From an uncultured bacterium (GTDB lineage: Bacteria > UBA8481): a DNA stretch of 37,856 nt. Positions 1,406 to 37,789 of the stretch are shown in pieces. The DNA is taken from contig CAZCME010000007.1 in NCBI GenBank assembly GCA_964499705.1, forward strand, positions 186,001-223,856, read 5' to 3'. The translations under genes were made by a program, and so were the position numbers. Below the pieces are notes generated by a model, which was not told where the DNA came from, did no database searches, and was given only the letters and a program-made list of their open reading frames with translations. Position 1 is the stretch's first letter. Every line of letters starts with the position of its first letter.

Positions 1406-2170
1406 TTATTTCCGGGCCGTAATCCAGAGCGATCCGGCGATGTTCCGGACGCCGGGAATCTTTTCCACCATGAGCCCGATATTCTCGGCGAGGCTGACGA
1501 GCTTGTCGGGAATGAGGGGATAGAGAAAATCGTAGAATTCGACAAGGACTGTCGAGAAGCCGGTTTTCCTGAAGATATTTTCCATCTGCCCTTTGAAAAA
1601 GGCGGTCTCATGCGGAGTGTCGCCGAACCGGGCCTTCAGAAACTTGCTCCGCTTGACGATCGCGTTCTGCGGATTCGCGAAATTCGGTTCCGAAAACGCC
1701 GCGCGGCCGCCGGGTTTCAGGATCCTGAAACCTTCCGCCAGGGCATTTTCCACCTCCAGATGATGCAAAATGGACGAGCCGCAGATGGCGTCGAAGACAC
1801 CTTCCCTGAAGGGAAGATGATGCGCATCGCATTCCACGATCCACGCGTTATCGAACGCGCCTTCCTGGCGGCCTTTCAACAGGAGATCATGCGAAATATC
1901 GACGGAGACCAGGCGGCGACCCGCCCGCTTATCCGCCGCCATGACGATTCTCCTCGTGAACTCGCCCGTGCCCGCTCCGAACTCCAGCACGCGCCCCAGG
2001 CCCTTGATTTCCTTCCTTAGCATCATGGCGCGCCGGGACTGCCGGCGCTGCCCCGTGACGGATTCCCAGCCCCAGATCTCCGAAGCCCTTTCCGCAATGC
2101 TCGCGCCATGTTCGCGTTCCGCCGCCAGCCTGCGGCTGAATCGGCCTGGACCGCTGTCGCTATCGCTCAT
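1406..2170 (-). CDS. Class I SAM-dependent methyltransferase
   Basis: VLEFGAGTG motif I, VDIS, DAHHLPF..FDAI, ILKPGG; overlaps the upstream GT2 fusion by 11 nt. Confidence 0.9.
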   Translation of the reverse strand: MSDSDSGPGRFSRRLAAEREHGASIAERASEIWGWESVTGQRRQSRRAMMLRKEIKGLGRVLEFGAGTGEFTRRIVMAADKRAGRRLVSVDISHDLLLKGRQEGAFDNAWIVECDAHHLPFREGVFDAICGSSILHHLEVENALAEGFRILKPGGRAAFSEPNFANPQNAIVKRSKFLKARFGDTPHETAFFKGQMENIFRKTGFSTVLVEFYDFLYPLIPDKLVSLAENIGLMVEKIPGVRNIAGSLWITARK

Positions 2171-3671
2171 GGTGGTTTCGATCCTGCGCGCCGGGCGCGG
2201 GTATCCTGAATTTCACGCGCTGCAACGCGACGAGGCACATCTTCAGGAGCAGAAACCCGTGCCGGAAACGCGATATTTTCGTATCCCCGTAAGTTCTGTC
2301 CCGATACCGGATCGGCATCTCGATGATCCGCAGGTTCTGCCTAGCGGCTCCGAAGATGAGATCGAAATCGCCGAACGGATCGAACTCGCCGAAGTAGTGG
2401 CGATTCGCCGCGATCTTGTCGTAATCGCTGCGGCGGAGCACCTTTGTGCCGCAGAGCGTATCCTTCAGGCGCTGGCCCAGGAGAAAGGAAAAAACGAGCG
2501 CGAAGAAGTGATTCGCAATGACGTTCAAAGGGCGCATGGCCTTGCCTTCCATCGGATAAACAAGCCGCGAACCGTTGATGAATTCGCCTCGCCCTTCCTC
2601 GATCGCGTGGTAGAACTTCGGCAGATCCTCCGGCGGCACGGTGAGATCCCCGTCGAGAATCATGAAGACCTCCCCGTTCGCCGCCGCGTATCCCTTGCGC
2701 ATCGCGTCGCCTTTCCCCTTGCCGGAGCCCTGGTCCACGAGCCGGATCTCGTGGCGGCCGGCATACTTGTCGATCATCTCCAGGATCTTCTCGCGCGTGC
2801 CGTCGTCGGAATTGCCATCGACGAAAATAAGCTCCGTATGCTTCCCCATCCTCGGCAGGCGCGTCACGGCGTCCTCGATGTTTCCGGCCTCGTTCCGTAC
2901 GGGACAGATCACCGATACCGTGTATTCCCGTTCCGGTCGTAAGCCGCCCGGCATCGGCCGGGCGACGGTGTAATTGATGAGCCCCAGCCGGTGCACGAGG
3001 GGAAACGGACCGATGTAACGGTTGATGAAGTTGGAGAGAAGCGGAATCTCCACGGGCAGAATCGTCGTGAATCCCATGCGGATGGATTCGTAACCGTTCA
3101 GGTACAGGAGATTGGTGATGTCATCGAAATTGAGCCAGTTGAGATTCGGCTGCGGCATCCGTTTCCCTATCGTCTCTCCAAGTTTCAGGATGGGCGCCCA
3201 GAGGTAATTGTAGTTCAGGATGATGATGCGTGTGTCCTGCGTGCAATTCTTCCTGATGTTCCGGAAGGCTCTCCAGATATCCTCGATATCCCCGATCGAA
3301 TTGGCGAAGAGGACGACATCGAACTCGCCCTCGACCCTGGCCGTCTGAATATCCATCGCATGAAACTCGAGATGAGGGAACCTGAGCCTGGCTGCATCGA
3401 CAATCGCCGGAGAGAGATCGATCCCCACGCCACGCGACGGCGCAAGATCGTTCAGGAGAAATCCCAGGCCGCATCCGATATCGAGAATTCTTTTTCCCGG
3501 CGCGATGAGGTCGCGCGCCAGCGAGGAAAGCTGGCCGTAGTAATAGGCGTTCTTCCTCCGGAATTCCTCCAGGTTGTCGACGCTATCGTCATAGAACTCG
3601 CGAACACGGTCGGTCTTGGTGAGCGCGAAGGGCGGCATGCCGCCGGGTAGTTCGCTGGAGGTCGATGTCAT
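2160..3671 (-). CDS. Bifunctional SAM methyltransferase / GT2 (DPM1-like polyprenol-phosphate glycosyltransferase)
   Basis: N-half has [10 protein letters not shown]-half has [40 protein letters not shown]. Start moved to ATG 3671, an ATGA overlap with the fcl stop; the track's first 164 aa lie in an alternative frame of fcl. Confidence 0.9.
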
Positions 3672-4609
3672 TTGTTCCGGTTCTCCTCGTACCACTGGAT
3701 CGTTTCCCTCAATCCCTCTTCGAACGGGATCCTCGCGCGCCAGTTGAAATAATCCGCGGCCCGCGTCGTATCGAGGCAGCGGCGCGGCTGCCCGTCCGGC
3801 TTCGACGGATCCCACTCGATCCGCCCGCGGAAATCCGTCATCTTCTTGATGAGATGCGTCAGGTCGCGAATGGAGATTTCCTCGCCCGACCCGAGATTGA
3901 CGGGCTCCGAACCGTCGTAGCGCAACAGCGCCGCGACGATGCCGGCCGCGCAATCGCGGACATGGAGAAATTCGCGCGTCGCCGATCCCGTGCCCCAGGC
4001 GACGATCTTTTCCTCGCGCCTCTCCCGGGCCTCGACGTATTTGCGTATCAGGGCCGGGATCACGTGCGATGTCTCCAGGTCGAAATTGTCCCGGGGACCG
4101 TAGAGATTGACAGGCAGGAGAAAGATCGCGTTCATGCCGTACTGCTGCCTGTAACCCTGGCACTGCACCAGCATGGCTTTCTTCGCGATGCCGTACGGAG
4201 CGTTCGTCACTTCCGGGTACCCGTTCCAGAGCTCTTCCTCCCGGAAGGGCACCGGCGTCATGTTCGGATAGGCGCAGATCGTGCCGGCCACCAAGAGTTT
4301 CTCCACTCCTGCCTGCCGCGATTCCTCGATGACGTGAATCCCCATCGCCATGTTGTCGTAGAAGAACTTCCCCGGGTTCGATCGGTTGGCGCCGATTCCT
4401 CCGACCACCGCCGCCAGGTGGACGACGATGTCGGGCTTCACATCCTGCATCAGTTTCCTGCAGACTTCCTCCTTGCGGAGATCGTACTGCGACGACCGGG
4501 GTATGAAGATGTCGGCCGGTTCATGCTCCCGCAATTGCTCGGTGACAAACGAACCGAGAAATCCGCCGCCGCCCGTCAGGATGATCTTCTTGCCCTTCAG
4601 GTCAGTCAT
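3668..4609 (-). CDS. fcl: GDP-L-fucose synthase
   Basis: [25 protein letters not shown] (YxxxK), [45 protein letters not shown]; start set at MTDLKGKK. Confidence 0.95.
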
Positions 4610-4722: not shown

Positions 4723-7700
4723 TCAGAACGCCTGCCCGATGGAAAAATGCAGCTGGCCGCGATTCTGGTTCGGGAAGTCGAGGCCGACGCCGTAGTCGAG
4801 GCGAATGGGGCCGAGCGGCGAATTGAACCGGACGCCCGCGCCGACGCCGGAGACGAGATCCTTGATCCCGATCTCGTACTCGCCGTCGTACACGCCGCCG
4901 ATGTCGTAGAAGAACGCCATGGAGACCGACTTGTCCTCCGTGAACGGTATGCGATATTCCACGTTCCCCAGGGCGTAGGACCGTCCCGGGCCCGAGAGCG
5001 TGTAGTTGGCGTTATACACCTGGATGCTCCGCTCGCGGTAGCCCCGCACGGAGGACGCGCCGCCCAGGTAGAATTTCTCGGTGGTCGGCACCGGATTGCT
5101 CCGCTCGAACCAGTTGGAGATCGTTCCATACTGTCCACGCACCGCCAGCACGTGGCTCCCGAACGTCTTCGTGAACTTGCTCCACGATATCGTCGGGCGG
5201 TTGAAGGCGACATTGCCTCCGAAGAAGCGCCCGGCGAGCTGGTTGGAGATTTCGAAGATCGATCCGGTCATGGGGTAATGAACGTCGTCGCGCGAATCGC
5301 GCGTGTACGTCGTCGTCAGGGAGGTCGTCGTCCGCACGAAACGGTTCTGGCTCGGGAACCCGACTTCCGCCTGGATGTCCGTCGGCGCGATGCCCGTTAC
5401 GCGCAGAAGCTCGACCTGCTCCACGCCGTACTTATAGCCCATCCGGCCGAATTCGCCGTATTTGTGCGAGAGCCGGATCGCTCCGCCACGCCGGCGCCAG
5501 TCGAATCCTTCCCGCTCCTGGAACGTGTTGAAGAAATCGAAGCCCAGCGAGATCGGGCGGTTCCGGAAGTACGGCTCCGTCCATGATGCGGAGAAGGAAT
5601 TCTTCTTCCCGCCATATTCCGCGGATACGGAAATCTCCTGTCCCGCGCCCGTGAACGTGAAGAAATCGAACGGGTCGAAATTCTTCTTCGTCACCGAAAG
5701 AAATCCGACGAGCCCGTCCACGCTGGAATAACCGCCTCCGAACTGGAGCTGCCCGGTCTTGCCTTCCGCGACCTTCACCTGCAGCACCCGCTGGTCCGGA
5801 TTCGTGCCGGGCTTCAGATCCATCCGCACCGATTGCGGCTCGAAGAATCCAAGAAGTTCCAGCTTCTTCCGGGCTTTTTCGATCTCGTCGCCGTCGAGCC
5901 GGTCACCCGGCCGGAGATTGATCTCCCGCATCACGATCTTGTCGCGCGTCTTGGAATTGCCCTCCACGACGATCTCCTGGAGATAAAGCACCTGGCCCTC
6001 GATCACCTTGATCGTGAAGTCGACGACGCCGCGGGCGGGATCGAGTCTCTCCTGCGGAACGACGCGCACCTCCGCGTAGCCGTGCTTCGCCGTGGCCAGG
6101 CGCATCTTCTCCACGGACTGGAAGAATTTTTGCGCGCGAAAGACGCTGCCGGGCAGGGGGCGAAGCATCTCCATCATCGCCGGAGTCGAAACCGCGGTGT
6201 TGCCCTCGAACTTGACCTCGCCGATCTTGTACTGCGGACCCTCGTTGATCGTGATATCGACGATCATCTTGCCCTTGGCGTCATAATGGACGACCGGATC
6301 CTCCATGACGGCGGATAGAAATCCCTTCTCTACGTACTTGCCCACGATCTTCTGGCGGTCTTCCTCGAATTCAGCCTGCTTGAAGACCTTGCCCGCGCCG
6401 GTCTTCATGTGCCAGTTGAGGCTCCAGTCGGAATAATACTTGTTGCCGTTCAGGTTGAAGGTGTGGATCTTGACCTTGTCCTTCTCCGCGATGCGATACG
6501 TCACGGCGATGGTCTGCGGCTTTCCGGCGCCTTCCTTGCCGGGGTCCACAACGGAGGTCTCGATGGTGACGACGGCGTTCAGATAGCCTTCGTTCTCGAG
6601 ATACTCGGTAATGGCCGAGCGCGATCGTTCGAGCACGGATTGCGAATACGGCGAACCTTCCGACAGCGTCACGACGCCGCGCACATCCGCTTCCTTCACC
6701 TTTTTCAATCCCGCGAGCTTAACGGAGGCCACCTTGCTGCGCTCGGTTACTTTCAAGACAACGTTGCCCTCCGCATCGCTGGCCCCTTCCTCCATGAACG
6801 CGGTCACATCTTCGAAGCGGCCCGTGGCATACAGGCGATGAATCTCGTCGCGGAAATGCCGGCCGATCTCCGGAAGAAGATAGGTCTCCCCGGCGCGCAT
6901 CTTCGAGCCCGCCAGGAGCTGTGACGAATCGTCGACTCCTTCGAATCGGATCGAGTTGACCCGGAAGGTCGGTATCGTCTGCCGGACGATCAGCTCGAAC
7001 TTGGACGGCGAACCTTCCATGTCGCCGCTCTCGACGAGCACGATGTAGCTGCCTCCCTGGTGACCCGCCTGGAAGCGGACACCCGCGAGGCCCGACGCGT
7101 CCGTGCGGACTTCCTCCAGCGAAAGATTCTGCCCGACCGCGCCTTCAGGTTCCGAGACGATGCGGTAGTTGATGGTCACATTCTCGACGGGATTGCCGTA
7201 GAGATCGGCGATGCGGGTGACAAGCGGCGAAATCGCGCGCTGATTCACTTTCAGAACCTGGTTGTTGCCGCTCACGATTTCCAGCCGCGCGGCCGGACCG
7301 GGCACCGTGGATATTTCGTAGGCGGCCGGTTCGCGGGAAAGGTCCGGCACCGAAGCGAGTATCGTGTACGAGCCGACGACGGTGCCGGCTCGCAATCTCG
7401 CGGAGGACATCCCGTCGCTGTCCGTCTTCGTTTCGCGCTGATCCATGCGCCCGCCGTCAGCCGGTGACGGCCGCGAAACGACATCGAACACCACGGAGAC
7501 GCCGGCAAGGGGCTTGCCCGTCTTGTCGGTGACTTTGACCTGGAGCGGGTCCGTCAGTCGACCTACGCGGATTTTCTGACCCGAACCGGACAGGACCGTC
7601 ATCCGGATTTCCGCCTGGTCGCGCTTGGTGATCGCCCCGCGAAATCGTTCCCATGCGGCCGCCGCCTTGTCCGCCTGCCCCGCCGTCTCCCACGCCGTCG

Positions 7701-7917
7701 CCGCCTTCTCCCACGAAACCGCCGCCTCGCCCCAGGCTTCCGAAGCGCGGATTTTTTCTCCGAGATCTTCCCAGATGCGCGCCGCTTCCTCCCGGGCCGT
7801 CGCCGCTTCCTCGAACAATTTCGCCGTGGATGCGGGATCCGTCTGGGCGGAGACGATCGCGGGGATGAAAAGCAGGAGCGCGAACCAGAATTTTATGGCG
7901 TTATGAGCGGGAATCAT
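4723..7917 (-). CDS. bamA: Outer membrane protein assembly factor BamA with N-terminal helical and two Ig-like domains
   Basis: Signal peptide; five POTRA-like repeats from about aa 318; barrel with TGQLQFGGGYSS, GAGQ, FYLGGASSVRGY, SPLGPIRLDYG and C-terminal FSIGQAF. Confidence 0.95.
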   Translation of the reverse strand: MIPAHNAIKFWFALLLFIPAIVSAQTDPASTAKLFEEAATAREEAARIWEDLGEKIRASEAWGEAAVSWEKAATAWETAGQADKAAAAWERFRGAITKRDQAEIRMTVLSGSGQKIRVGRLTDPLQVKVTDKTGKPLAGVSVVFDVVSRPSPADGGRMDQRETKTDSDGMSSARLRAGTVVGSYTILASVPDLSREPAAYEISTVPGPAARLEIVSGNNQVLKVNQRAISPLVTRIADLYGNPVENVTINYRIVSEPEGAVGQNLSLEEVRTDASGLAGVRFQAGHQGGSYIVLVESGDMEGSPSKFELIVRQTIPTFRVNSIRFEGVDDSSQLLAGSKMRAGETYLLPEIGRHFRDEIHRLYATGRFEDVTAFMEEGASDAEGNVVLKVTERSKVASVKLAGLKKVKEADVRGVVTLSEGSPYSQSVLERSRSAITEYLENEGYLNAVVTIETSVVDPGKEGAGKPQTIAVTYRIAEKDKVKIHTFNLNGNKYYSDWSLNWHMKTGAGKVFKQAEFEEDRQKIVGKYVEKGFLSAVMEDPVVHYDAKGKMIVDITINEGPQYKIGEVKFEGNTAVSTPAMMEMLRPLPGSVFRAQKFFQSVEKMRLATAKHGYAEVRVVPQERLDPARGVVDFTIKVIEGQVLYLQEIVVEGNSKTRDKIVMREINLRPGDRLDGDEIEKARKKLELLGFFEPQSVRMDLKPGTNPDQRVLQVKVAEGKTGQLQFGGGYSSVDGLVGFLSVTKKNFDPFDFFTFTGAGQEISVSAEYGGKKNSFSASWTEPYFRNRPISLGFDFFNTFQEREGFDWRRRGGAIRLSHKYGEFGRMGYKYGVEQVELLRVTGIAPTDIQAEVGFPSQNRFVRTTTSLTTTYTRDSRDDVHYPMTGSIFEISNQLAGRFFGGNVAFNRPTISWSKFTKTFGSHVLAVRGQYGTISNWFERSNPVPTTEKFYLGGASSVRGYRERSIQVYNANYTLSGPGRSYALGNVEYRIPFTEDKSVSMAFFYDIGGVYDGEYEIGIKDLVSGVGAGVRFNSPLGPIRLDYGVGLDFPNQNRGQLHFSIGQAF

Positions 7918-9590: not shown

Positions 9591-11093
9591 ATGGGCGGCG
9601 CCTTCGGCAGATACTCCTTGATCTTCTTCCTCGCCCTGTCGGTCAGGCTCCTTTCATGGAATAGCGTCTTCCCGGGCGACGAAACGGTCTGGGTCGGAGG
9701 ACCGGATGCGTACTATCATGCGAGGAGGGCGGAACTTGCGGCGGCGGGTGCTCCGCTGTCGAATGACCTCTGGTTGAATTACCCTCAAGGGGAAACTCTC
9801 CATTGGCCCGCTGTCTATGACAGAATGCTCGGCATTGTTCGGAAGATATCATCTTCCCGCGTTGTTGCGTTTTCGCCCGTCCTGTTTGGAGTCCTCGCCA
9901 CACTCGCATTTTCGCTCTTTGCTCAAAGGCTCCTGCCCGATGCCTGGCTGCCCTCTTCCCTGGCATTCGCGATTCTTCCCGCGGTGGTCTATCCCAGCTG
10001 CCTCGGAGCCATCGACCATCATTGCGTGGAGGCGTTACTGGTGTGCACGCTCGCCGCGGCGCTTTCCACGTCGTCCCGTTCTCCCGTTCTTGCCGGCATC
10101 ATCGCTATCTCCTCTTTCGGGATCATTCCCATGTACCCCATATTGCTGGTGCTCCTGGTCGGTTCCTGCATTCTCCCCCGTTGCCGACGCGCATCCGCCG
10201 CGACAAGCGTGCTCCTGTCGGCCGCTCTCGCGATTCCCGTCGCGGGACGCTCCTATTTCGCGGATCCGTGGATCTCCAGGATCAACGAGGCCGAGCCGCT
10301 CATCCGGTCCGAAATCGATTTCTTCAAAGCGATCGTCTGGCTATCGCCCGGTTTTCTCTTTCTACCTTCGGCCTGCGCGCGCTGGTGGCGGGCGCGTTCG
10401 GACATGCCCGCAGCGACGGCACTCGTCGCCACCGCCGTCACATTGCCCCTCGTTCTCATCCAGTCGCGATTCACTCTCTACTTCGCCCTTCCTTGCGCCC
10501 TCGCCCTCGGAGAAACGTGGCGACACGCGAGCCACCTCCCGCGGCGACTTCTTCGCATCCTGGCACTCGCGCTTCTCCTGCCCAGCGCGGGTGGGCTTCA
10601 CGAAATGCTCTCCTGGCGGGAAGATCCTCCGCGGGAACTGCGGCGCGCCATGAGCGAGCTTTCGCGCATCACGGAACCGGCGGGGAATCCGATGGATCCG
10701 GAAGCCAGGCCGGACTATGGCGTCGTTGCCGCGTGGGATCTGGGAAATCAGATTCTCTCGATCGGCGAAAGACCCGTTCTGGCGGATGCCTTCCACACGG
10801 GATCCTCGGGGCGCGACCTGGCTCATCGCATCCTGCTTTCTGCGCCGATCGAAGCGACGCGCGTCGCCGATGAGCAGAATGCGCGCGTGCTTTTCCTGAC
10901 GGATATCGCGTCGAACGGGTACGCGCGCGAATACAGAAATACCGATCAGCCGATTCCCTACCACAGCCTGTTCGGACAGTTGTTTATCCTGCAGCGAACC
11001 GACCTGGGATGGGAGAGGATCCACTCGTCCGATGAGCGGATTGCATTCGAGCTATGGAACGTTCCCGCGGTTCAAATCTGGAGGCGCAAATAA
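9591..11093 (+). CDS. STT3/AglB/PglB-like oligosaccharyltransferase (compact, variant motif)
   Basis: N-terminal DAYYHARR and D.WLNYPQG...HWP, DHH motif, SRINEAEPL (TIxE-like), QSRF, C-terminal YGVVAAWDLGNQI (WWDYG-like) followed by RPVLADAF; multiple TM helices. Confidence 0.8.
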   Translation: MGGAFGRYSLIFFLALSVRLLSWNSVFPGDETVWVGGPDAYYHARRAELAAAGAPLSNDLWLNYPQGETLHWPAVYDRMLGIVRKISSSRVVAFSPVLFGVLATLAFSLFAQRLLPDAWLPSSLAFAILPAVVYPSCLGAIDHHCVEALLVCTLAAALSTSSRSPVLAGIIAISSFGIIPMYPILLVLLVGSCILPRCRRASAATSVLLSAALAIPVAGRSYFADPWISRINEAEPLIRSEIDFFKAIVWLSPGFLFLPSACARWWRARSDMPAATALVATAVTLPLVLIQSRFTLYFALPCALALGETWRHASHLPRRLLRILALALLLPSAGGLHEMLSWREDPPRELRRAMSELSRITEPAGNPMDPEARPDYGVVAAWDLGNQILSIGERPVLADAFHTGSSGRDLAHRILLSAPIEATRVADEQNARVLFLTDIASNGYAREYRNTDQPIPYHSLFGQLFILQRTDLGWERIHSSDERIAFELWNVPAVQIWRRK

Positions 11094-11122
11094 AAACGCC
11101 TGCCAGGCAACCTGGCAGGCGT
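11091..11122 (-). terminator. Rho-independent terminator of the first flp gene
   Basis: Perfect 12-bp stem ACGCCTGCCAGG / CCTGGCAGGCGT (11096-11122) with a 3-nt loop, followed on the minus strand by TTTTATTT; lies between convergent genes. Confidence 0.85.
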
Positions 11123-11139
11123 GAAATCCCGTGGATATC

Positions 11140-11340
11140 TCAGTAAATACCGCCGGAAAGCGCGGCCTGATTCTGCCCCATGGTACCCGTGCCCACGGCA
11201 CCGGCGAACATGTTGCGCAAAGGACCACCAAGAGCGACGAAGACTGCAATGACGATAATCGCAATCAGGCCGATGATGAGCCCGTATTCGACCATTCCCT
11301 GTCCAGCCTCGTCCACGTTGAGTTCTCGCAGATCCACCAT
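11140..11340 (-). CDS. flp: Flp family pilin (copy 1)
   Basis: Prepilin motif G|QGMVEYGLII, hydrophobic helix, 66 aa; SD GGAGGTG 7 nt upstream of the ATG. Confidence 0.93.
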   Translation of the reverse strand: MVDLRELNVDEAGQGMVEYGLIIGLIAIIVIAVFVALGGPLRNMFAGAVGTGTMGQNQAALSGGIY

Positions 11341-11382
11341 TTTTCATCACCTCCCTTGCGGAAAAAGATAAGAAAATAATAT

Positions 11383-11398
11383 AGCAAACGGCCTGCCA
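11383..11398 (-). promoter_or_regulatory. sigma54 (-24/-12) promoter upstream of flp copy 1
   Basis: Minus strand TGGCAGGCCGTTTGCT: GG-N10-GC spacing, close to consensus TGGCAC-N5-TTGCW, 42 nt upstream of the ATG. Confidence 0.7.
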
Positions 11399-11429
11399 CG
11401 ATTCCATATCGGGGAGAGTGAAAAATTGC

Positions 11430-13403
11430 TCATTTCACCTCATAAAGGCTGACATTCGCGGCAGTATCCCTGAGCGCCAGGTTCGTATGTTGAAGCAGGT
11501 ATTTCTCCAGCACGGCCCGATCGCCATAGCGCGGCGGGGAAGGGGCCAGTCCTACAAGGATTTTAACGGCATACCAGTCGGGAGCATGCAGAATATGCGT
11601 ATATCGCTCCTTCTTCATCCAGTGGGCGATATGCGCGACCGCGGCCTCCTCGTCCGTGGTATCCGTTTCATGGATCACGGCGAAAATGCGCGGGAGATCC
11701 GCGTCGAATTCGAAGGATGCATTGCGTCCCAGGTGAAAGAGGCGGGATTCGCCGATGGAGAGAACCTTCGCGTCGGCGGGAAGAAGGCGTGCGGCTTCAT
11801 CCTGGATTTTCCAAGATGAGGACCAGTTTCGCATGTAATCCTCCATCGAGATTCCGCCGCACAGGTAGGCAGGAAACGGCTGGTATCGCATGTGAATGTG
11901 AACGGCCACGCCGAAGGACACCGCCACGGCCAGCGTAAATCCGGTCAGGATGAGCTTTCTCCCGGTGGACTTCTTCAGCGTGGAAATCCAGAAGGACAGA
12001 AAAACGGAACCGCCGATGAGGCACGCGCCCAGTGCGGGAAGCACAAAGCGGAAGAGCCCGCCGCGCGCATACGCGTGGCTTCCTCCACCGGTCACGAACC
12101 AGAGCGCGATCGAGGTCGATGTGAGGAAGGAGAGAATTCTCAGGGAGACGCCGCCGGCGCGTGCTGCGGGAAAGCGCCAGGCCAGGATCGCTGACATCGT
12201 GAGAACGGCGAACGCCGCTCCGTACGGTCCGTCAATCCCCTGGTCGATGAAGAGAAAGTACGACGCGAACACCCGCAGCAGCCGCTCCACGACCGGCGCG
12301 GCGATCGAACCCGCCGCGCTGGCCATCACGTGGCCGGATTGCGGCATGATCGTGCCGAACTGAAGGATATTTCTGATCCACCAGTAACTCGGCATCAGGA
12401 GAAGCAACACACAACAGGAGAACCAGACCGATTTTTGCCGGCGAGTCCGCCACGCGAGAACCAGGACGGCAGGGAGGACTCCATAGACTGCCGTCACCTT
12501 GACCGCCAGGCTGGAACCCAGGAAAAAGGCGGCTCGCCATGGAGAGAAGGAGGCGGGCAGGATCCTGCGGATACCGAGCATGAAGAGCAGGAGTGTGAGC
12601 GCCTCCGTCTTCGTATGCGATATCGTGAAGAGCAGAATCGCGCTCGTGGATGTCACCCCGTAAACCATCATGCGCGTCCTGCCACAAATTTCCTCCCGGT
12701 CTTCATGCGCGCCGGCCACTTCCCCGGCCAGTTCGCCCGCCGCGCGGGCGCCTGTCATGACGGCGAACGGGAGGCTCAACCCGAAGAGTATATTCGCGGC
12801 GATCCCCGACGGATCAAGCGCCAGCGTCATGAGCGCCAGCATCTCGCCGGCCTGTGTGTACTGGTAATAATGGACAGCGTCCGGAGGGGTCAGGGAGGCA
12901 CGCGCCAGATACTGCACGCCCAGCCCTATGTGATACGTCAGAGCGTCCATGCCGGCCGGTGGTGCCAGCGTTGAGAGGAACGCCCAGGACAGTCCAGCAC
13001 TCCCCAAAAGCAGCATCGCGATCCCGAACGGGCCGCAGCGAGATACGGATATCCAGACCTTCGAGGGCAGGTGGCGAAGGTTCACAAATGTCATTTCCCC
13101 GGGACCCCAGATCGCCATGGCGAATACCGGGATCGCCAGGAACGGTGCCCTCAATCCTCCGACGAGATGAAGCACGACCGGCCAGAGCGAGAGAATCATG
13201 CAGCCGAACGCGAAATTCTCTTCAGGCAAGCCGTGATGGAACCAGCTTCCGATCCGGAACGCTGCGATTGTCACGAGGAGCGCCATCATGAGCGGATAAA
13301 GCCAGCCGGGAACACTGGTGAGCGAATCGAGGAGAGTGAGAAGGGAACCAACGAATAGAGTGGAGGCCATGATCAGGCCGATGAGTCGAGGTCGCTCTGG
13401 CAT
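11430..13403 (-). CDS. Multi-pass membrane protein, probable GT-C fold glycosyltransferase
   Basis: 657 aa, many TM helices, PPAGMDALTYH loop (DxxxYH as in ArnT/PMT-like proteins), LAVKVTA, PSYWWIRN, RFVLP, soluble C-terminal domain (LPADAKVLSIGESRLFHL). Confidence 0.7.
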   Translation of the reverse strand: MPERPRLIGLIMASTLFVGSLLTLLDSLTSVPGWLYPLMMALLVTIAAFRIGSWFHHGLPEENFAFGCMILSLWPVVLHLVGGLRAPFLAIPVFAMAIWGPGEMTFVNLRHLPSKVWISVSRCGPFGIAMLLLGSAGLSWAFLSTLAPPAGMDALTYHIGLGVQYLARASLTPPDAVHYYQYTQAGEMLALMTLALDPSGIAANILFGLSLPFAVMTGARAAGELAGEVAGAHEDREEICGRTRMMVYGVTSTSAILLFTISHTKTEALTLLLFMLGIRRILPASFSPWRAAFFLGSSLAVKVTAVYGVLPAVLVLAWRTRRQKSVWFSCCVLLLLMPSYWWIRNILQFGTIMPQSGHVMASAAGSIAAPVVERLLRVFASYFLFIDQGIDGPYGAAFAVLTMSAILAWRFPAARAGGVSLRILSFLTSTSIALWFVTGGGSHAYARGGLFRFVLPALGACLIGGSVFLSFWISTLKKSTGRKLILTGFTLAVAVSFGVAVHIHMRYQPFPAYLCGGISMEDYMRNWSSSWKIQDEAARLLPADAKVLSIGESRLFHLGRNASFEFDADLPRIFAVIHETDTTDEEAAVAHIAHWMKKERYTHILHAPDWYAVKILVGLAPSPPRYGDRAVLEKYLLQHTNLALRDTAANVSLYEVK

Positions 13404-13432
13404 CGCCGGTCGAGCATAAGATCGGCGGGGTT

Positions 13433-13470
13433 AAAACACAATGCCCCGCCCCGCTTGCGCGGGACGGGGC
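13433..13470 (-). terminator. Rho-independent terminator of flp copy 2
   Basis: Minus strand GCCCCGTCCCGC-GCAA-GCGGGGCGGGGC (12-bp stem with one G-U pair, GNRA loop), then ATTGTGTTTT. Confidence 0.75.
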
Positions 13471-13513
13471 GGGTTCAATTGTTCAAAGTTGGGCTAAAAG
13501 CGTGTGAACGCTC

Positions 13514-13711
13514 TTAGTAGATGCCCCCTGAAAGAGCTGCCTGGTTCTGGCCCATTGTGCCGGTTCCCACAGCGCCCGAGAACATGTTCCGGAGCGGTCC
13601 TCCAAGAGCAACGAAGACTGCGATGACGATGATGGCGATCAGGCCGATGATCAGGCCGTACTCGACCATTCCTTGTCCGGATTCTGCATTTAACTCGCGA
13701 ATGTCGATCAC
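13514..13711 (-). CDS. flp: Flp family pilin (copy 2)
   Basis: G|QGMVEYGLII motif; GTG start with SD GGAGGTG; mature part 52/53 aa identical to copy 1. Confidence 0.93.
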   Translation of the reverse strand: MIDIRELNAESGQGMVEYGLIIGLIAIIVIAVFVALGGPLRNMFSGAVGTGTMGQNQAALSGGIY

Positions 13712-13804
13712 TTTAATATCACCTCCCTTCGATAAAATCCTTCAAACAGTATCGAAATTTCAATCTAAAAACTGCATACCTATTTTATGATTCGAAGCGT
13801 AAAT

Positions 13805-14020
13805 CTAGAAAATACCGGCTGACAATGACGCCTGGTGCCTCCCGATACCCTCATCCGACAAAGTTCCGCTCGAATCGCCGCCGATATCGACGACGTTGTT
13901 GAAGACTACGAAGACGGTGACAATGAGAACGGCGATCAGGCCCACAATCAGCCCGTACTCGACCATCCCTTGGCCTCGCCTGCTCGCCAAATTCCAACGA
14001 ATCATCAGTGATCTTGTCAT
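13805..14020 (-). CDS. flp: Flp family pilin (divergent copy 3)
   Basis: RRG|QGMVEYGLIVGLIAV motif; C-terminus QASLSAGIF resembles QAALSGGIY of copies 1 and 2; TATAAT ends 8 nt upstream of the ATG. Confidence 0.85.
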   Translation of the reverse strand: MTRSLMIRWNLASRRGQGMVEYGLIVGLIAVLIVTVFVVFNNVVDIGGDSSGTLSDEGIGRHQASLSAGIF

Positions 14021-14061
14021 GGTTGCACATTATATGTCAATGCTTGCTCTTGGTATTTTTT

Positions 14062-14090
14062 TTGACATTCTCGACTTCCGAGAATATTCT
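14062..14090 (+). promoter_or_regulatory. sigma70 promoter with palindromic spacer
   Basis: TTGACA-17 nt-TATTCT; the spacer is ATTCTCG-N5-CGAGAAT; 11 nt before ATG 14102. Confidence 0.6.
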
Positions 14091-14101
14091 TACGTCCTTC
14101 G

Positions 14102-14614
14102 ATGCGTAACTTCCCTATTTGCATGCTGTTTTTGTCCTTCTTTCTCATTTCGTGTGGTCAATCGGCCCCTCCTGGACGTAGCACTGTCGCTGATTCTACC
14201 TCAGTCGGGGCAAATTCCGACAAGATTCCGCTGAAACCGGAGCCCGGAGTGATCGAGGGACGCATTATTAACGCCGACTCGGGTTCGTTATGGAAGATCG
14301 CAATCATCGAATTTCGAGCCGAGGATCCGGAAATCCAGTCGATCATGGCCGCCATGCCCGACAGCCGGGGAGTCTTTGCCGTCTCATTGCCGCCCCTGCC
14401 GTACGAAATCCCTTTCGCAGTCGTCGGTTTCGAGGATGAAAACGGTAACGACCAGATCGATCAAGGGGAGGATTTCGTCGGTAGCCGGTCGATCGGAGCC
14501 GGATATTCCGGCAAAGGAATGTTTCTCCTGACGGAAGCGGGATCTTTCGTCGGCGATCGATCCTGGGATCTCACGGAAGTCGAATTCGTCATCGATGTGA
14601 ATGCGCTCCCCTGA
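14102..14614 (+). CDS. Hypothetical lipoprotein with a DxNxDx-type Ca-binding loop
   Basis: Lipobox LISC (Cys18); DENGNDQIDQGE resembles a Dx[DN]xDG calcium loop. Confidence 0.65.
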   Translation: MRNFPICMLFLSFFLISCGQSAPPGRSTVADSTSVGANSDKIPLKPEPGVIEGRIINADSGSLWKIAIIEFRAEDPEIQSIMAAMPDSRGVFAVSLPPLPYEIPFAVVGFEDENGNDQIDQGEDFVGSRSIGAGYSGKGMFLLTEAGSFVGDRSWDLTEVEFVIDVNALP

Positions 14615-15647
14615 CGCGCGCGGCAAATCCGGATCCCTGCCGCGCGCCCTCCTGACCTGGTTTCTCGTCTTCCTCGCCTTGGAACTCGGAGTCCGCTTTC
14701 AGGAAATCGCCAAAAGCGGGCCGTCGGGATTCTGGTTGAGTTCCCCCGAAGCTCATCACGCCAATGTCCCTTCGGATAATTCTTCTCTCTCTTTTCTTCT
14801 CGCGCCGGAAATCGATCGTTCGGGAGGCCACGGATCCGAATCCGCTCCGCTGAAAATTCTCTGCATCGGCAATTCCAACATCTGGGGGCACCTGACCGAT
14901 GAGGACGCCACGCTGCCGTATCAGCTCTGGAAAAAGCTGAAGGACTCCGGAGTGGAAGCCTGGGTCGTCAACGCCGGCGTGCCCGGCCACACGGCGGAAA
15001 ATATCCGCGCTCATCTCGAGCTCGAACTCGCGCGCGCGAAATATGATCTCGTTCTCTTCACCGCCGGGTGGAACGATCTGCACGCCGCCGCCGCAGCCCC
15101 CTCCCGCGTCCTTGCTCATGCGGCCCCGGGACCGCCTTCAGGCCCCTTCGGCCGCATCGGGCTCTTTCGTCTCGCGGATGCCGCCCTGGAACATATCATG
15201 CCGTTCGCAGTGCCTCCCGACACCTGGAACGCGGCGCGCCTCGATTCCATGATGCCTGAGGTCCGCAGGATCATAAAGCTGGCCCGGAAGAGCGGAGCCT
15301 CCGTCTATGCCATGGATCTTCCCTCGGGGCTCTCCGACGACTCGGGCATCGCGGAAGTCCGCGCCGTGGAAAAGGTCGTCTATCCTCCCGTGCGCCGGTT
15401 TTCGCCGCGCGGCTATCGGCGCCTCTTCGGGGAACTCCTGAAGCGCTATCGATCCGTGATCGCGGAACAGAATGTCCCCCTCCTCTCCTTCGGTCTCGAA
15501 TATGAAGTCCCCTGGGAAGAAAAGAAATTTTTCGTCCTCGATCAATGCCATCCCACGCCGCGCGGCAACCGGCTCATCGCCGACAAGCTCATCGCCCGCC
15601 TTCTCGCCGACGGATTAATACGGGGACAGTATACTATTATTCGATGA
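14601..15647 (+). CDS. Membrane-anchored SGNH/GDSL family protein
   Basis: N-terminal TM (LALELGVR); blocks IGNSNIWG, VNAGVPG, GWNDL, DQCHPTPRGN. Confidence 0.85.
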   Translation: MRSPDARGKSGSLPRALLTWFLVFLALELGVRFQEIAKSGPSGFWLSSPEAHHANVPSDNSSLSFLLAPEIDRSGGHGSESAPLKILCIGNSNIWGHLTDEDATLPYQLWKKLKDSGVEAWVVNAGVPGHTAENIRAHLELELARAKYDLVLFTAGWNDLHAAAAAPSRVLAHAAPGPPSGPFGRIGLFRLADAALEHIMPFAVPPDTWNAARLDSMMPEVRRIIKLARKSGASVYAMDLPSGLSDDSGIAEVRAVEKVVYPPVRRFSPRGYRRLFGELLKRYRSVIAEQNVPLLSFGLEYEVPWEEKKFFVLDQCHPTPRGNRLIADKLIARLLADGLIRGQYTIIR

Positions 15648-34008: not shown

Positions 34009-35004
34009 GTGCTGCTTCGCCTGCTTGCCACTTCTCTTCTCATCCTGATGGTTCTCGCGGGTTGCGTGGGGTATCTGATGATCGCCCCACCCTCCGGAGG
34101 CCCGCGCACGGTCACCATTCCACCGGATGTCGGCCCGGATGAGATCGCCGTTCTCCTGGCTGACGCTCGGATTATCGCTACCCCCGCGGCCTACAGCATC
34201 GCCGCGAATCTCATGAAGCGATCGCCAAAGCCCGGTCGTTACGTCTTCTCCGCCGGTGTCTATCCGTGGGTCGCGGTGCGTATTCTCTCGAAAGGCCCGC
34301 CTCCGGAACTCGAGCTCACGGTCACGGTTCCCGAGGGAAAGCGACTCGAGGAGATCGCCACCATTCTCGACGCGGCCGGGATCACGAACGAGCGGGAATT
34401 CCTGCGCGGCGCCCGGGATCGCGCATTCATTCGCGAGCTCATCGGATCCGATCAGGATTCCCTGGAAGGATACCTCTTCCCCGACACCTACAAGTTCAAG
34501 CCGAATTCGGACGTCCTGTCGGTCATCAGGAGAATGCATCAGCGGTTCACGGAACAATCGTCAGGGCTGGCGAACCCGCGGCTTTCCATGCATGAATTCG
34601 TCACGCTCGCTTCGATCGTCGAGCGTGAAGCGCGCGTGCCGCAGGAGCGACCGCGGATCGCGGCGGTGTATCTGAACCGGCTGCGCATCGGCATGAAACT
34701 GGATGCCGATCCCACGGTCCGCTATGCCGTCAACAAATGGGATACGACGCCCGTCCTGTATGTCGATCTCGAATCCAGGTCACCCTACAACACATACCGC
34801 GTTCCCGGGCTGCCCCCGGGACCGATTTGCTCGCCCGGGCGCGCGAGCCTCGACGCCGTCGCGCACCCGCTCGAATCGCGCGAACTCTTCTTCGTGGCGC
34901 AGGGCGACGGGAGCCATATCTTCTCCGAAAGTTTCCGGGATCACCTGGCTCATGTCGCCGCGGTTCGTCGGACCGCGGCACGCGAGGCGCACGAAAGGCG
35001 ATGA
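34009..35004 (+). CDS. mltG: Endolytic transglycosylase MltG
   Basis: N-terminal TM, TVPEG, LEGYLFPDTY, TLASIVEREA, NRLRIGMKLDADPTV, SPYNTY..PGLPPGPI. Confidence 0.95.
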   Translation: MLLRLLATSLLILMVLAGCVGYLMIAPPSGGPRTVTIPPDVGPDEIAVLLADARIIATPAAYSIAANLMKRSPKPGRYVFSAGVYPWVAVRILSKGPPPELELTVTVPEGKRLEEIATILDAAGITNEREFLRGARDRAFIRELIGSDQDSLEGYLFPDTYKFKPNSDVLSVIRRMHQRFTEQSSGLANPRLSMHEFVTLASIVEREARVPQERPRIAAVYLNRLRIGMKLDADPTVRYAVNKWDTTPVLYVDLESRSPYNTYRVPGLPPGPICSPGRASLDAVAHPLESRELFFVAQGDGSHIFSESFRDHLAHVAAVRRTAAREAHERR

Positions 35005-36110
35005 TCTCGAACCCGGGCCGCCTGGCTGTCGCGACAGGCGTCTTCATCCTGGCGACCGGAGGCCTGTTCGGATGGAATGAAAACAGCTCGTGGAGCGACC
35101 TGATTCCCGCGCTGGCGGGCGCGGCGCTATTGGCGCTCTCCATCCCGGGGCAGGCGAGCCGCCTTTCTCGCGCTTCGCTGATCCCCCTGTTCTGCATGAT
35201 GGCGATGGCCGTGTTAACATGGGATTCCCCGCGCGAATGCATCAGCTGGTTGCTGGTCACAGTCTCTTTTGCGGCCGGCCTGCACTCCCGGCACGACGAC
35301 CTCGTCCGCCGAACCGTTCTCGGCGCTTGCTTTCTGCTTCTCCTGCTGGCCTGTTACCAGCGCTGGATCCTCTTCCCATGGCTGGCGCCCCAACTCGAGG
35401 GCGAAGCGCGCGGCCGCCTTCTCTCCGGCCGCACTTTCTCCTCATTCATGCTTCCCGCTCAATTTTCCGCCTACCTCGCTCTCGTCCTGCCCCTGGCCGT
35501 CGCTGTCGCCCTGACCGATCGGCATCGCCGTGCGCACAAGATCATGGCCATTCTCATCCCCGCCGGCTTTGTGCTCGCCGGATCCCTTTCCGGAGTCGTG
35601 GCCGCCCTGGCCGCGCTGGTGGTTCTTCAGGCGGGATCGCGCCGATTCACGCGCATTCATCTGCTGATGTTAATCGCTCTCCTTGGCGTCCTGGCCTTTC
35701 GCTTTGACGCGCTCATTCTCTCGTCATCGTCCTATTCCATGCGCTGGAACACCTGGCATGCGACGCTCCTCGGCAGCACCGAGAGCCTCTGGACCGGTCA
35801 TGGATCCGGATCATTCGAACAGATCTTCATGACGCGATACTGGATGGAGGGATCCGACGAAGTCAGGCATCCGCATTCATGGCCGCTCAAGATCCTGTTC
35901 GAGCAAGGCCTCGCCGGACTTTTTCTCTGGATCGTTGCCGTGGCTCCCCTGTTCGCAAGACTGCGCGATCGATCGTTCCGAGCCGCGGCGTTTGCATTCG
36001 TGATCGCCTGCCTGCTGGATGTCGCCGATCTTTCGCTGACGCTTCGCTCCCTCGCGTTCTTCCTGCTCGGCAGTTCCCTCTCACCTGACCCGGAAAGCAA
36101 ATCCCCCTGA
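35001..36110 (+). CDS. O-antigen ligase / O-oligosaccharyltransferase family membrane protein
   Basis: ATG 35001 overlaps the mltG stop (ATGA); GRTFSSF..PAQFSAYL, R...W...TGHGSGSF, HPHSW (Wzy_C-type loop). Confidence 0.8.
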   Translation: MISNPGRLAVATGVFILATGGLFGWNENSSWSDLIPALAGAALLALSIPGQASRLSRASLIPLFCMMAMAVLTWDSPRECISWLLVTVSFAAGLHSRHDDLVRRTVLGACFLLLLLACYQRWILFPWLAPQLEGEARGRLLSGRTFSSFMLPAQFSAYLALVLPLAVAVALTDRHRRAHKIMAILIPAGFVLAGSLSGVVAALAALVVLQAGSRRFTRIHLLMLIALLGVLAFRFDALILSSSSYSMRWNTWHATLLGSTESLWTGHGSGSFEQIFMTRYWMEGSDEVRHPHSWPLKILFEQGLAGLFLWIVAVAPLFARLRDRSFRAAAFAFVIACLLDVADLSLTLRSLAFFLLGSSLSPDPESKSP

Positions 36111-36151: not shown

Positions 36152-37789
36152 ATGCAGGCGCGGATCACCATGCTGGCGCCGCTTCTGGCTCTGATTCTCG
36201 GAGTCTCATCCGTGGATCGACTCTGGCCTCGTCTTCCTCTTCTCCTCAGTCTCCTGGCGGGCGTCTCGTTCCTCGCGGCCCTCCGCGCCTTCGATCGCAG
36301 ACTGCTCACTGTGACGGCGTTGCTGGCGTCTCTCATGCTCGGCATCGTTACGGGAACACGAATCGCGGATACCGGCCATCGCTCGATCGTGAAGGATTCC
36401 GCAGTATCCTGGCGAGCGGACGCTGTCTTTACATGGCATACCGCGCGCTTTGTCCGAGCCGTAATGCTGGCCGAGACCGACGTCCTGGACGAGTCCGATC
36501 GCGACCATTATCGACGGGCGGGATTGACTCATCTTCTGGCCATCTCCGGCTTGAACGTCGCCATCCTAGCGGGATTCTTCTGGTGCGCCGTCCGTGGCAT
36601 CGCGGGCGGCGGTGCCGTCACGGAATACGCGGCGGCGGCGGCGACCTCGATCTATATCTTCGGAATCGGAGCGCCTCCTTCCGCATTGCGCGCGGGCCTG
36701 ATGGCTGCCGCGGTATTTCTCGCCAGAGCGTGGAAGCGGCCCGCGCATATTCTCAACGTTCTACTCGGAGCCGCATTCGTGACGGTGGCCTTCGATCCCG
36801 CCGCGCTCTTCGATGTCGGATTTCAGCTGTCGTACGCCGCGACCCTGGGGCTCATTTTCTGGTCACGACCTCTCGAATCGTGGATGCCGGCACGATCCGG
36901 CCTGCTCGGACGATTGATCGCTGTTTCCGCGGCAGCGCAGCTTCCCACGCTGCCGATCATGATGAGCGTCTTCGGCGAGTTCGCGCCGATTGCCTTTCTC
37001 GCCAACATCGCGGTCGTCCCCATCTTCGCTCTCCTCATGCCGCTCATCGTTTTGGCCTTGTGCGGAGTACCGGGATGCGCGGTCCTGACGGAGATTCTTC
37101 ACGGCAGGACGACGGCGATCATCTCCACTTTCGCGGATATGCCCGGATCCTCCTACCTGATCGATCGACCGCCCTTGGCGGCGGTCGTAGCGTTGCTCGG
37201 TCTCTCCGCGCTGCCCATCCTCCCGAATCGCACATCACGAATGGTGGCCGTGTGCGCGCTCGCTCTCATCGCCTTCGGCGCCGTCCTGGCGCATCGCGTC
37301 GAAGATGGGCTTTATCTCGTCAGGGACGGTTCGCGGGCCGGAGCGATGCGCGTGGATGCCGGACAAGCTGAACTCCTCGATCCGGGCCTCTCCGCGGCCA
37401 CCTGGCGCCGGGCGCTTTCGGATCTCCGTATCCGCCGCATCGAACGGGTCATCACGGCCACGCCGATTTCTCTCTCGCACGGACACGCGTTCTCTCTCGT
37501 TCATGACCGCCCCGTCGACGCGTGGGAGATCGATTCCCGATGGGAGACCGACGCGGAAGTGGAAGCCAGGATTTCGCGTCTGAAACGGGCCGGCGCGAAA
37601 ATCACGCGAAGGGCGCCCAATCAGGGGCCGATCATCGCGTTCCATTCGGATATTATCGCTCTCGGTCAGGCAAAAGATACCCGCGCCACGATCCGGATCG
37701 AGATGACAAGGGAGCATGAAATCCTCGTACGGGATGGTGATGGCTCGGTCAGAGCGGTCGTATCCGACAGACTTCAAGTCATGCCATGA
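36152..37789 (+). CDS. comEC: ComEC/Rec2 competence DNA uptake channel
   Basis: AGLTHLLAISGLNV, GAPPSALRA, FDVGFQLSYAAT, AQLPTLPI, LANI..VP. Confidence 0.9.
   Translation: MQARITMLAPLLALILGVSSVDRLWPRLPLLLSLLAGVSFLAALRAFDRRLLTVTALLASLMLGIVTGTRIADTGHRSIVKDSAVSWRADAVFTWHTARFVRAVMLAETDVLDESDRDHYRRAGLTHLLAISGLNVAILAGFFWCAVRGIAGGGAVTEYAAAAATSIYIFGIGAPPSALRAGLMAAAVFLARAWKRPAHILNVLLGAAFVTVAFDPAALFDVGFQLSYAATLGLIFWSRPLESWMPARSGLLGRLIAVSAAAQLPTLPIMMSVFGEFAPIAFLANIAVVPIFALLMPLIVLALCGVPGCAVLTEILHGRTTAIISTFADMPGSSYLIDRPPLAAVVALLGLSALPILPNRTSRMVAVCALALIAFGAVLAHRVEDGLYLVRDGSRAGAMRVDAGQAELLDPGLSAATWRRALSDLRIRRIERVITATPISLSHGHAFSLVHDRPVDAWEIDSRWETDAEVEARISRLKRAGAKITRRAPNQGPIIAFHSDIIALGQAKDTRATIRIEMTREHEILVRDGDGSVRAVVSDRLQVMP

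Follow-up and report, generated by a model that had tools for sequence, protein, structure and literature searches.

Flp pilin genes linked to AglB-like oligosaccharyltransferase and GT-C glycosyltransferase genes: a candidate pilin glycosylation cassette in an uncultured groundwater bacterium

Do membrane glycosyltransferases whose genes are interleaved with pilin genes act on those pilins? This question is raised by a stretch of 37,856 nucleotides (the window; G000:C7:186001-223856) from the genome of an uncultured groundwater bacterium, in which three genes for Flp prepilins (flp1, flp2, and flp3) lie among genes for a short AglB/STT3-like oligosaccharyltransferase (OST) and a membrane glycosyltransferase with a predicted GT-C fold. 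The genome, G000, comprises 4.67 Mb in 45 contigs and is 96% complete; the lineage label in the source records of homologues is Candidatus Hydrogenedentes/Hydrogenedentota. The original prediction for this locus, all of whose named ORFs we found in the order and at the positions claimed (Table 1), was a dedicated pilin-tailoring cassette that also included an SGNH hydrolase. The linkage of OST, GT-C, and pilin genes proved to be conserved, and the GT-C family turned out to be linked to a second class of pilin as well, whereas the SGNH gene falls outside the block. From this genomic context, we put at roughly 0.5 the probability that the locus is a pilin glycosylation cassette analogous to PilA-TfpO and PilA-TfpW, with the GT-C enzyme as the likelier pilin modifier.

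The reference genome set contains only five genomes (G000-G004) from what is treated as this phylum. G001, G002, and G003 are the other members of the family of G000, and G004, which is 94% complete, is the sole genome of a sister family. In all four family genomes, the OST gene and the GT-C gene are neighbors of each other and of one or more Flp genes. The order in G000 is OST(+) flp1(-) GT-C(-) flp2(-) flp3(-), and G003, when placed in the same orientation, has OST(+) GT-C(-) flp(-) flp(-) flp3(-). G002 carries flp(-) OST(+) GT-C(-), with the flp gene divergent from the OST gene, and G001 carries type IV pilin(-) OST(+) GT-C(-) flp3-like(-); only in G000 is flp1 located between the OST and GT-C genes. 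The G001 block also lies outside the MTHFR (methylenetetrahydrofolate reductase)/BamA/gcvP context: it is bordered by an EcoRV/Dam restriction-modification pair on one side and a SpoU gene on the other. Across the family, gene order within the block varies, but the genes have not dispersed. Identity to G000 in the other three genomes is 37-46% for the OST and 36-40% for the GT-C enzyme, and neighboring housekeeping genes are 61-76% identical. Both enzymes evolve fast, because the identity of conserved neighbors such as BamA (64% between G003 and G000) and gcvPB (76%) is much higher.

The association of the GT-C family with pilins extends beyond the Flp genes. At two further loci, G002:C11 (with two N_methyl type IV pilin genes) and G001:C181 (with one), two tandem GT-C paralogues are encoded directly downstream of the pilin genes and on the same strand. 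These paralogues belong to two other clades of the family tree, in which the Flp-linked clade has an SH-aLRT support of 100%. Three of the four GT-C family genes of G000 lie within 6 kb of a pilin-type match (at 168, 3565, and 5931 bp), and 4.2% of the genome lies within that distance of such a match (binomial P of about 3e-4); the 6 kb distance was chosen post hoc, and at 4 kb the count is two of four. Because the block is present in all four family genomes and the paralogues lie downstream of type IV pilin genes, the linkage between the GT-C family and pilins exceeds chance.

The adjacency could still be a rearrangement accident, of no functional significance, in a lineage rich in pilin genes. 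Type IV filament genes are abundant in G000 (21 T2SSE ATPase and 26 N_methyl matches), and there are only five related genomes. Set against these points, only four Flp-type genes were found in the 4.67 Mb genome by motif screen and Pfam, and three of them lie in this 2.9 kb stretch; a mere 0.9% of the genome is within 1 kb of any pilin match; and the linkage has survived both the divergence of the enzymes to 36-46% identity and a change of context. An accident is already disfavored by these data, and we regard it as very improbable.

The gene order is not an artefact of assembly, because Logan contigs span its junctions. One bridges the 3' end of the OST gene, flp1, and the GT-C gene (X1 record 3, 10442-13103, 0 differences), and others bridge the 5' end of the GT-C gene, flp2, and flp3 (X4 record 31), and flp2, flp3, and the neighboring lipoprotein-like ORF (X3 record 22). 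The bridging contigs come from runs of two studies, one of which may itself be the source of the assembly. At position 13941, inside flp3, one X4 contig, from another study, is one base short (depth 5.96 of 9.76), which would shift the frame; strain variation or an error at low depth would account for the loss.

The three prepilins contain the processing motif GQG↓MVEYGLI (the arrow marks the cleavage site) followed by about 20 hydrophobic residues. The products of flp1 and flp2 score above the Flp_Fap (PF04964) cut-off of 32.2 bits, and that of flp3 falls 1.7 bits under it; with this small shortfall, Pfam and NCBIfam matches agree with the OST, Flp, and SGNH family calls of the original prediction. 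Mature Flp1 and Flp2 differ at one residue. Two pilin types can be distinguished over the five genomes: A-type pilins, to which Flp1 and Flp2 belong, are 77-92% identical, with values of 83-92% in the family of G000 and of 77-85% between Flp1 and the A-type Flp of four other genomes, and Flp3 shares 66-77% identity with the B-type Flp of G001, G003, and G004. Both types terminate in (A/S)LS(A/G/S)G(I/V)(Y/F), at times followed by one more residue, and an LS(A/G)G motif is found at the end of 11 of the 12 Flp tails that were aligned, as well as at the end of the G004 B-type Flp.

The machinery with which these pilins might be assembled is encoded elsewhere. Of the 38 window proteins that were scanned, none was identified as a prepilin peptidase, a secretin, or a Tad protein, as had been claimed. 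The pilins had also been described as orphans; they are indeed unlinked from tad genes, but a complete tad core locus (cpaB, cpaC, cpaE, cpaF, tadB, and tadC) is present on contig C13. It encodes an RcpC/CpaB protein, a 1121-aa secretin with a pilus N-terminal domain, a REC-ParA CpaE-like protein, a CpaF-like T2SSE ATPase, and two single-domain T2SSF proteins, and it contains neither a pilin gene nor a peptidase gene. The fourth Flp gene of the genome is also on C13, about 10 kb from the tad locus. As the tad core is complete and lacks a pilin gene, the Flp pilins of the block are likely to be its substrates. As a candidate for a dedicated TadV/CpaA-type prepilin peptidase, the 96% complete genome offers a single A24 prepilin peptidase match (PF01478, E <= 0.01), in a 345-aa ORF on contig C19. 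At the head of the C13 tad locus, directly upstream of cpaB, are genes for a 583-aa polytopic-looking protein and a 289-aa protein (L035 12238-13989 and 11114-11983, both on the minus strand), neither of which has a family match.

The GT-C protein of the block is itself difficult to classify: it has no Pfam match at E <= 1 and no NCBIfam match, and a profile of its family retrieved no Protein Data Bank sequence at E <= 10. Only eight orthologue-level sequences were found among 5.8 billion. All eight contain the motif PPxGMDALTYH in their N-terminal half, including D153, a candidate for the conserved acidic residue of the first periplasmic loop of such enzymes; one of them matches PMT_2 (E 0.012) and three match DUF1420 (best E 7.9e-4). 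The profile has three to five matches in each of the five genomes, with paralogues at E 1e-64 to 1e-90, and two paralogues pass the cut-off of a Pfam model: one on G000:C16 passes PMT_2 (30.3 bits; cut-off 26.1), and one on G003:C14, encoded beside a GT2 gene, passes GT87 (26.3 bits; cut-off 25). We compared folds using Atlas models. The model of the GT-C protein (pTM 0.84) has TM scores of 0.72-0.82 over 543-615 residues to PMT_2/PMT/DUF8201 clusters, with feature scores of 0.98-0.99. By this transitive evidence from paralogues and structural models, the assignment of the protein to the GT-C fold, which the original prediction had made, is right.

Another G000 paralogue (G000:C19:15243-17018; L065 8190-10019) is a profile match with one in-frame TGA, which could reflect pseudogene formation, an error in sequencing, or recoding of the codon. 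A type IV pilin gene lies 3.6 kb away from this paralogue, and the sole prepilin peptidase match of the genome about 7 kb away.

The OST was assigned to the STT3 family with more direct evidence. It passes the Pfam AglB_core-like model (PF22627; 28.5 bits, cut-off 27), falls below the STT3 cut-off (14.4 bits; cut-off 24.5), and gives a partial match to the NCBIfam model archaeo_STT3 (TIGR04154) with an E value of 2.5e-30, far under the full-length cut-off. The close family comprises ten sequences at E <= 1e-64 among 5.8 billion. When solved structures were searched with a profile of this family, Archaeoglobus fulgidus AglB-L (3waj) was the best match, at E 1.2e-17, and PglB was not retrieved at E <= 1. 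The Atlas model of the OST (pTM 0.85) has a TM score of 0.89 over 493 residues to an archaeal AglB cluster; similar-looking Atlas models are those of unnamed Verrucomicrobiota proteins of about 530 aa. Scans of public collections with the OST alignment yielded three loci in the genome collection and four in the metagenome collection (three of the G001 type), with nothing beyond the known loci and archaeal or distant STT3 genes.

Alignment with 3waj pairs GGPDAYY of the OST with GGNDPWY, AIDHH with NDHH, and AAWDLGH with WWDYGH. Residues D39, D142, H143, H144, and E233 are invariant in all ten homologues, and W382, D383, and G385 are at least 90% conserved in the ten-sequence alignment. We take the Asp of external loop 1 (EL1), D39, and D142-H-H144 to be metal ligands. 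A candidate for the TIXE/SVSE-type motif of external loop 5 (EL5) is I-x-E-A-x-P-L, which contains the invariant E233, in a region that HMMER left unaligned to 3waj. About 115 residues follow the WWDYG-equivalent motif. The conserved acidic residues of the OST and the GMDALTYH motif of the GT-C enzyme make both enzymes look catalytically competent.

Several observations weigh against a dedicated cassette, and some of these concern what the OST could recognize. Its WWDYG equivalent is degenerate, with the first Trp replaced by Ala and the Tyr by Leu (AWDLG) in the ten-sequence consensus. No DK/DKi/MI-type motif, which we take to form the pocket for the Ser/Thr at position +2 in STT3 enzymes, is recognizable in the OST: TDIASNGYAREY lies opposite SDIEMETGKYYAM of 3waj and contains no Lys. 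We conclude that the OST is a real and probably active STT3-family enzyme whose periplasmic domain is minimal and whose acceptor-recognition region is altered. On the substrate side, the Asn residues of the mature pilins occur in the tripeptides NMF and NQA, and NNV and NVV, so the claim that these proteins have no N-X-S/T sequon holds, and the sequon is likewise missing from all 12 Flp pilins collected from the five genomes. Canonical N-glycosylation of these pilins is therefore excluded. The absence itself is statistically unremarkable, because each Flp has only two to three Asn residues and the genomes are closely related.

It is conceivable that the OST is nevertheless the pilin enzyme, which, having lost its Ser/Thr (+2) pocket, would modify a non-canonical site in the Flp tail, with the GT-C enzyme adding a second sugar or extending the first. 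The degenerate motifs fit such a role, and so do the intact acidic catalytic residues and the position of the OST gene, which abuts a pilin gene in three of the four family genomes (flp1 in G000, flp in G002, and the type IV pilin gene in G001). In G003, however, the OST gene is flanked by the GT-C and MTHFR genes and not by a pilin gene; G004, whose highly conserved Flp pilins are the same, lacks the OST; and the homologues outside the family are mostly without a link to pilins. Rare relaxed sites aside, we know of no STT3-family enzyme that acts without N-X-S/T. The action of an AglB-like OST on sequon-less Flp pilins is purely conjectural, and a pathway in which the OST is the pilin enzyme seems unlikely to us.

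The remaining observations against a cassette come from the distribution of the genes. In G004, the GT-C orthologue occurs in BamA-MTHFR-GTP cyclohydrolase I (GCH1) synteny without an adjacent OST or Flp gene, so the association, whose conservation the original prediction had proposed as a test, is conserved in the four family genomes but not in the sister family. The place of the OST gene is occupied in G004 by the gene for a 575-aa polytopic, flippase-like protein with a weak MATE match (E 6.9e-8; L063 8100-9827, G004:C136), and no OST was detected anywhere in this 94% complete genome. Its A-type and B-type Flp genes form a pair on a different contig from the GT-C gene, among unrelated neighbors. 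Within the family, the G003 member of one of the pilin-linked GT-C clades does not adjoin a pilin gene, and the five genomes are all related to one another, so the conserved adjacencies amount to only a few events that are independent. G000 also encodes a second short AglB-like OST (C1:133959-135389; L026 7894-9411), which is 35% identical to that of the block. Its gene follows an AddAB-like helicase-nuclease pair and precedes genes for a secreted GH16/F5-F8 type C protein and a TonB-dependent receptor, with no pilin gene nearby. Two genes downstream of the G004 Flp pair were considered as cpaB and cpaC and rejected: they have no Pfam match, one is GH149-like, and their G000 homologues are on other contigs.

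Outside the family, STT3-like matches were found in 28 genomes of a 401-genome sample, and we examined 22 non-family loci (20, plus two of G017). An STT3-like ORF was present in 21 of these loci, and in two of the 21 (G278 and G361) it adjoined a type IV pilin-like ORF, as judged by a regular-expression screen only. The closest outside homologue of the short OST, that of G186 (E 1e-146; L118 813-3522, G186:C109), has no pilin neighbor. In G017:C15 (L086 8697-19000), from a distant bacterial lineage, the gene for a full-length AglB-like OST (824 aa) with STT3, AglB_core, and AglB_L1 domains is directly followed by genes for a PMT_2 protein of 560 aa and a secreted protein of 2018 aa that contains LTD, fn3, and Kelch domains, and there is no pilin gene. 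Because G017 pairs an OST with a PMT_2 protein without a pilin, the two may be a general module, and a pair of STT3 and PMT_2 enzymes may be a recurring one.

These distributions are what would be expected if the OST and the GT-C enzyme served the general glycosylation of envelope or secreted proteins (or made a glycolipid or polysaccharide), and the Flp genes had merely been relocated beside them without encoding their substrates. The G004 GT-C gene, in the same housekeeping synteny, and the G017 and G186 loci can all be read in this way, as can the lack of sequons in the pilins and the three to five GT-C family matches per genome, whose contexts vary and one of which adjoins a GT2 gene. A general role explains less readily why the block is intact in G001 despite internal rearrangement and a changed context, why two further GT-C clades are encoded directly downstream of type IV pilins, and why the vicinity of pilin genes in G000 is enriched in members of the GT-C family. 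We consider such a general pair the most serious alternative, if a doubtful one, and prefer the pilin glycosylation cassette.

In such a cassette, the Flp prepilins would be inserted into the inner membrane and cleaved at GQG↓MVEYG, presumably by the single A24 prepilin peptidase of the genome. The short periplasmic Flp tail (GGPLRNMF.GAVGTGTMGQNQAALSGGIY) would then receive sugar from a polyprenyl-phosphate-linked donor on the outer side of the membrane, before the pilins are assembled by the tad machine encoded on contig C13. The PMT_2-like GT-C enzyme would O-glycosylate Ser/Thr residues, for example in the GTGT stretch or the LS(A/G)G motif. The AglB-like OST would belong to the same module; its acceptors could be the neighboring pilins, at a non-canonical site, or sequon-bearing proteins such as type IV pilins. 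The identities of the genes, the folds and catalytic motifs of their products, the conservation of the linkage, and the separateness of the tad locus are observed, whereas we infer every enzymatic step of this model, together with the donor and the acceptor residue.

Pilin-specific glycosyltransferases encoded beside a pilin gene have precedents in PilA-TfpO (PilO) and PilA-TfpW of Pseudomonas aeruginosa and in PglS-ComP and TfpM of Acinetobacter/Moraxellaceae. TfpW is regarded as GT-C-like, and Wzy_C is the hallmark domain of TfpO, PglL, PglS, and TfpM. As in PilA-TfpO/TfpW, the gene for a polytopic membrane glycosyltransferase adjoins a pilin gene in the block, and we propose a reaction at the periplasmic face with a lipid-linked donor; the order of a pilin gene followed by enzyme genes on one strand is found at the paralogue loci G001:C181 and G002:C11. 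The systems differ in that the pilins of the block are Flp/Tad (type IVc) pilins of 51-53 residues rather than type IVa pilins, and that two different enzymes are encoded. Unlike TfpO, PglL, PglS, and TfpM, neither the OST nor the GT-C protein matches Wzy_C (PF04932); the comparison with TfpW is by description only.

Archaeal AglB N-glycosylates archaeal pilins and archaellins, and Tad pili are regarded as archaeal in origin. The OST resembles archaeal AglB (AglB-L, 3waj/5gmy; AglB-S, C-terminal domains 3vgp and 3vu0) in the EL1 Asp, D-H-H, and W-D-x-G residues that align with 3waj, in its AglB_core-like match, and in its modeled fold. It differs in its bacterial host, its length of only 500 aa, the AWDLG sequence in place of WWDYG, and the lack of a DK/MI-type motif, and the pilins beside it lack N-X-S/T. 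PMT_2/GT39-type GT-C enzymes include actinobacterial Pmt and ArnT-like enzymes. The GT-C protein of the block shares with them the GT-C fold of its Atlas model, paralogues past the PMT_2/GT87 cut-offs, and a conserved acidic motif in the N-terminal half, but it passes no Pfam model itself and has only eight orthologues in 5.8 billion sequences.

For Flp pilins themselves, the introduction of one paper describes RcpC as "implicated" in glycosylation of Aggregatibacter Flp1, with no transferase assigned, and the paper presents RcpC as a periplasmic alignment-complex protein (PMC12307814). In a structural study of the Caulobacter Tad pilus, no extra density attributable to glycosylation is reported (PMC10710030). 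The system proposed here is like that of Aggregatibacter in that an Flp pilin would be glycosylated; it differs in that candidate enzymes are encoded next to the pilins, whereas RcpC/CpaB is encoded in the distant tad locus. In the open-access literature, we found no paper in which Flp pilins are linked to an enzyme of the STT3 or PMT_2 type.

The genes flp3, flp2, GT-C, and flp1 are read from one strand with gaps of 89-110 bp, and the OST gene is convergent with them, ending 47 bp from flp1 (Table 1). A terminator often follows a major pilin gene, ahead of a weakly read-through modifier gene. Strong terminator-like hairpins follow flp1 and flp2, and this operon-like layout counts in favor of the cassette; overall, six terminator-like sites were found compared with 5.8 expected in shuffled sequences, and there is thus no enrichment. 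The flanks are housekeeping genes, with BamA, MTHFR, and GCH1 upstream and rhodanese and glycine-cleavage genes downstream; GCH1 lies outside the conserved block.

Table 1. Coordinates of the pilin and enzyme genes, the associated hairpins, and the adjacent ORFs in the window
Feature	Position	Strand	Evidence
Short AglB/STT3-like oligosaccharyltransferase (OST), 500 aa	9591..11093	+	PF22627, TIGR04154, 3waj profile match, Atlas model
Terminator-like hairpin directly 3' of flp1, abutting the OST stop codon	11096..11122	-	12-bp stem, 9 GC pairs, then T-run
flp1, A-type Flp prepilin, 66 aa (mature 51 aa)	11140..11340	-	PF04964, 33.6 bits
Putative GT-C-fold membrane glycosyltransferase, 657 aa, PMT_2/GT39-like, with DUF8201-like C-terminal part	11430..13403	-	Paralogue matches and Atlas model
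Strong terminator-like hairpin 3' of flp2, ahead of the GT-C gene	13443..13470	-	12-bp stem, 11 GC pairs, T-rich tail
flp2, A-type Flp prepilin, 65 aa (mature 51 aa), near-duplicate of flp1	13514..13711	-	PF04964, 35.1 bits
flp3, B-type Flp prepilin, 71 aa (mature 53 aa)	13805..14020	-	PF04964, 30.5 bits; GQG↓MVEYG motif
Lipoprotein-like ORF, 170 aa, possible accessory gene, membership uncertain	14102..14614	+	No family match
SGNH/GDSL hydrolase, 348 aa, probably outside the unit	14601..15647	+	PF13472 (Lipase_GDSL_2), E 9.8e-13

Two ORFs divergent from the pilin genes border the block. The lipoprotein-like ORF has no Pfam or NCBIfam match, and among the family loci a copy (36% identical) is found beside flp genes in G003 only. 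The SGNH protein had been proposed to add or remove acyl groups on the modified pilins. Because its gene was not found at the G001, G002, or G003 loci, this acyl-tailoring step is unsupported, and we excluded the gene from the system for its lack of conservation. The short OST gene of G186 is followed by that of a 386-aa protein in which SGNH-like blocks are seen (a single comparison with the window SGNH protein gave E 0.013), which is a weak lead to a link between OST and SGNH proteins.

Elsewhere in the window, positions 2160-4163 (-) encode a 667-aa fusion of a class-I methyltransferase and a GT2 domain, and a second methyltransferase gene (1406-2170, -) follows it. The best NCBIfam matches of the GT2 domain are AglJ (E 2.9e-28), dolichyl-phosphate hexose transferase, and ArnC-like models. 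A copy that is 79% identical over 468 residues is encoded near the G003 block, and the synteny is common to G003 only. Judging from these sequence matches, the fusion could be a polyprenyl-phosphate sugar synthase that supplies a GT-C enzyme; we treat this as a lead and do not count the gene as part of the block. BamA (4723-7917, -; 1064 aa) has an N-terminal extension that matches Big_1 and invasin D3 Ig-like domains before its POTRA repeats. The only Wzy_C (O-antigen ligase-like) protein of the window is a 457-aa membrane protein (34737-36110, +) whose gene, 20 kb away from the Flp genes, immediately precedes that of the competence channel ComEC (36152-37789, +), and it has a weak match to a model of an exosortase-associated O-glycosylation ligase.

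Tad/Flp pili are widespread adhesion and biofilm organelles, and this locus offers two candidate glycosylation enzymes beside the genes for their putative substrates. It also adds a bacterial example of an AglB-type OST whose acceptor pocket is altered; should this OST act on the Flp pilins, STT3 enzymes would have a wider range of acceptors than is known, which would be of interest for glyco-engineering. The most far-reaching possibility is that a pocket-less STT3 enzyme of archaeal type and a PMT-like GT-C enzyme jointly glycosylate sequon-less Flp pilins, as one case of a broader class of pilin-linked STT3/GT-C enzymes, as yet undescribed, in uncultured bacterial phyla. We judge this to be improbable; if true, it would provide the first enzymology of Tad-pilin glycosylation and a new acceptor rule for STT3 enzymes.

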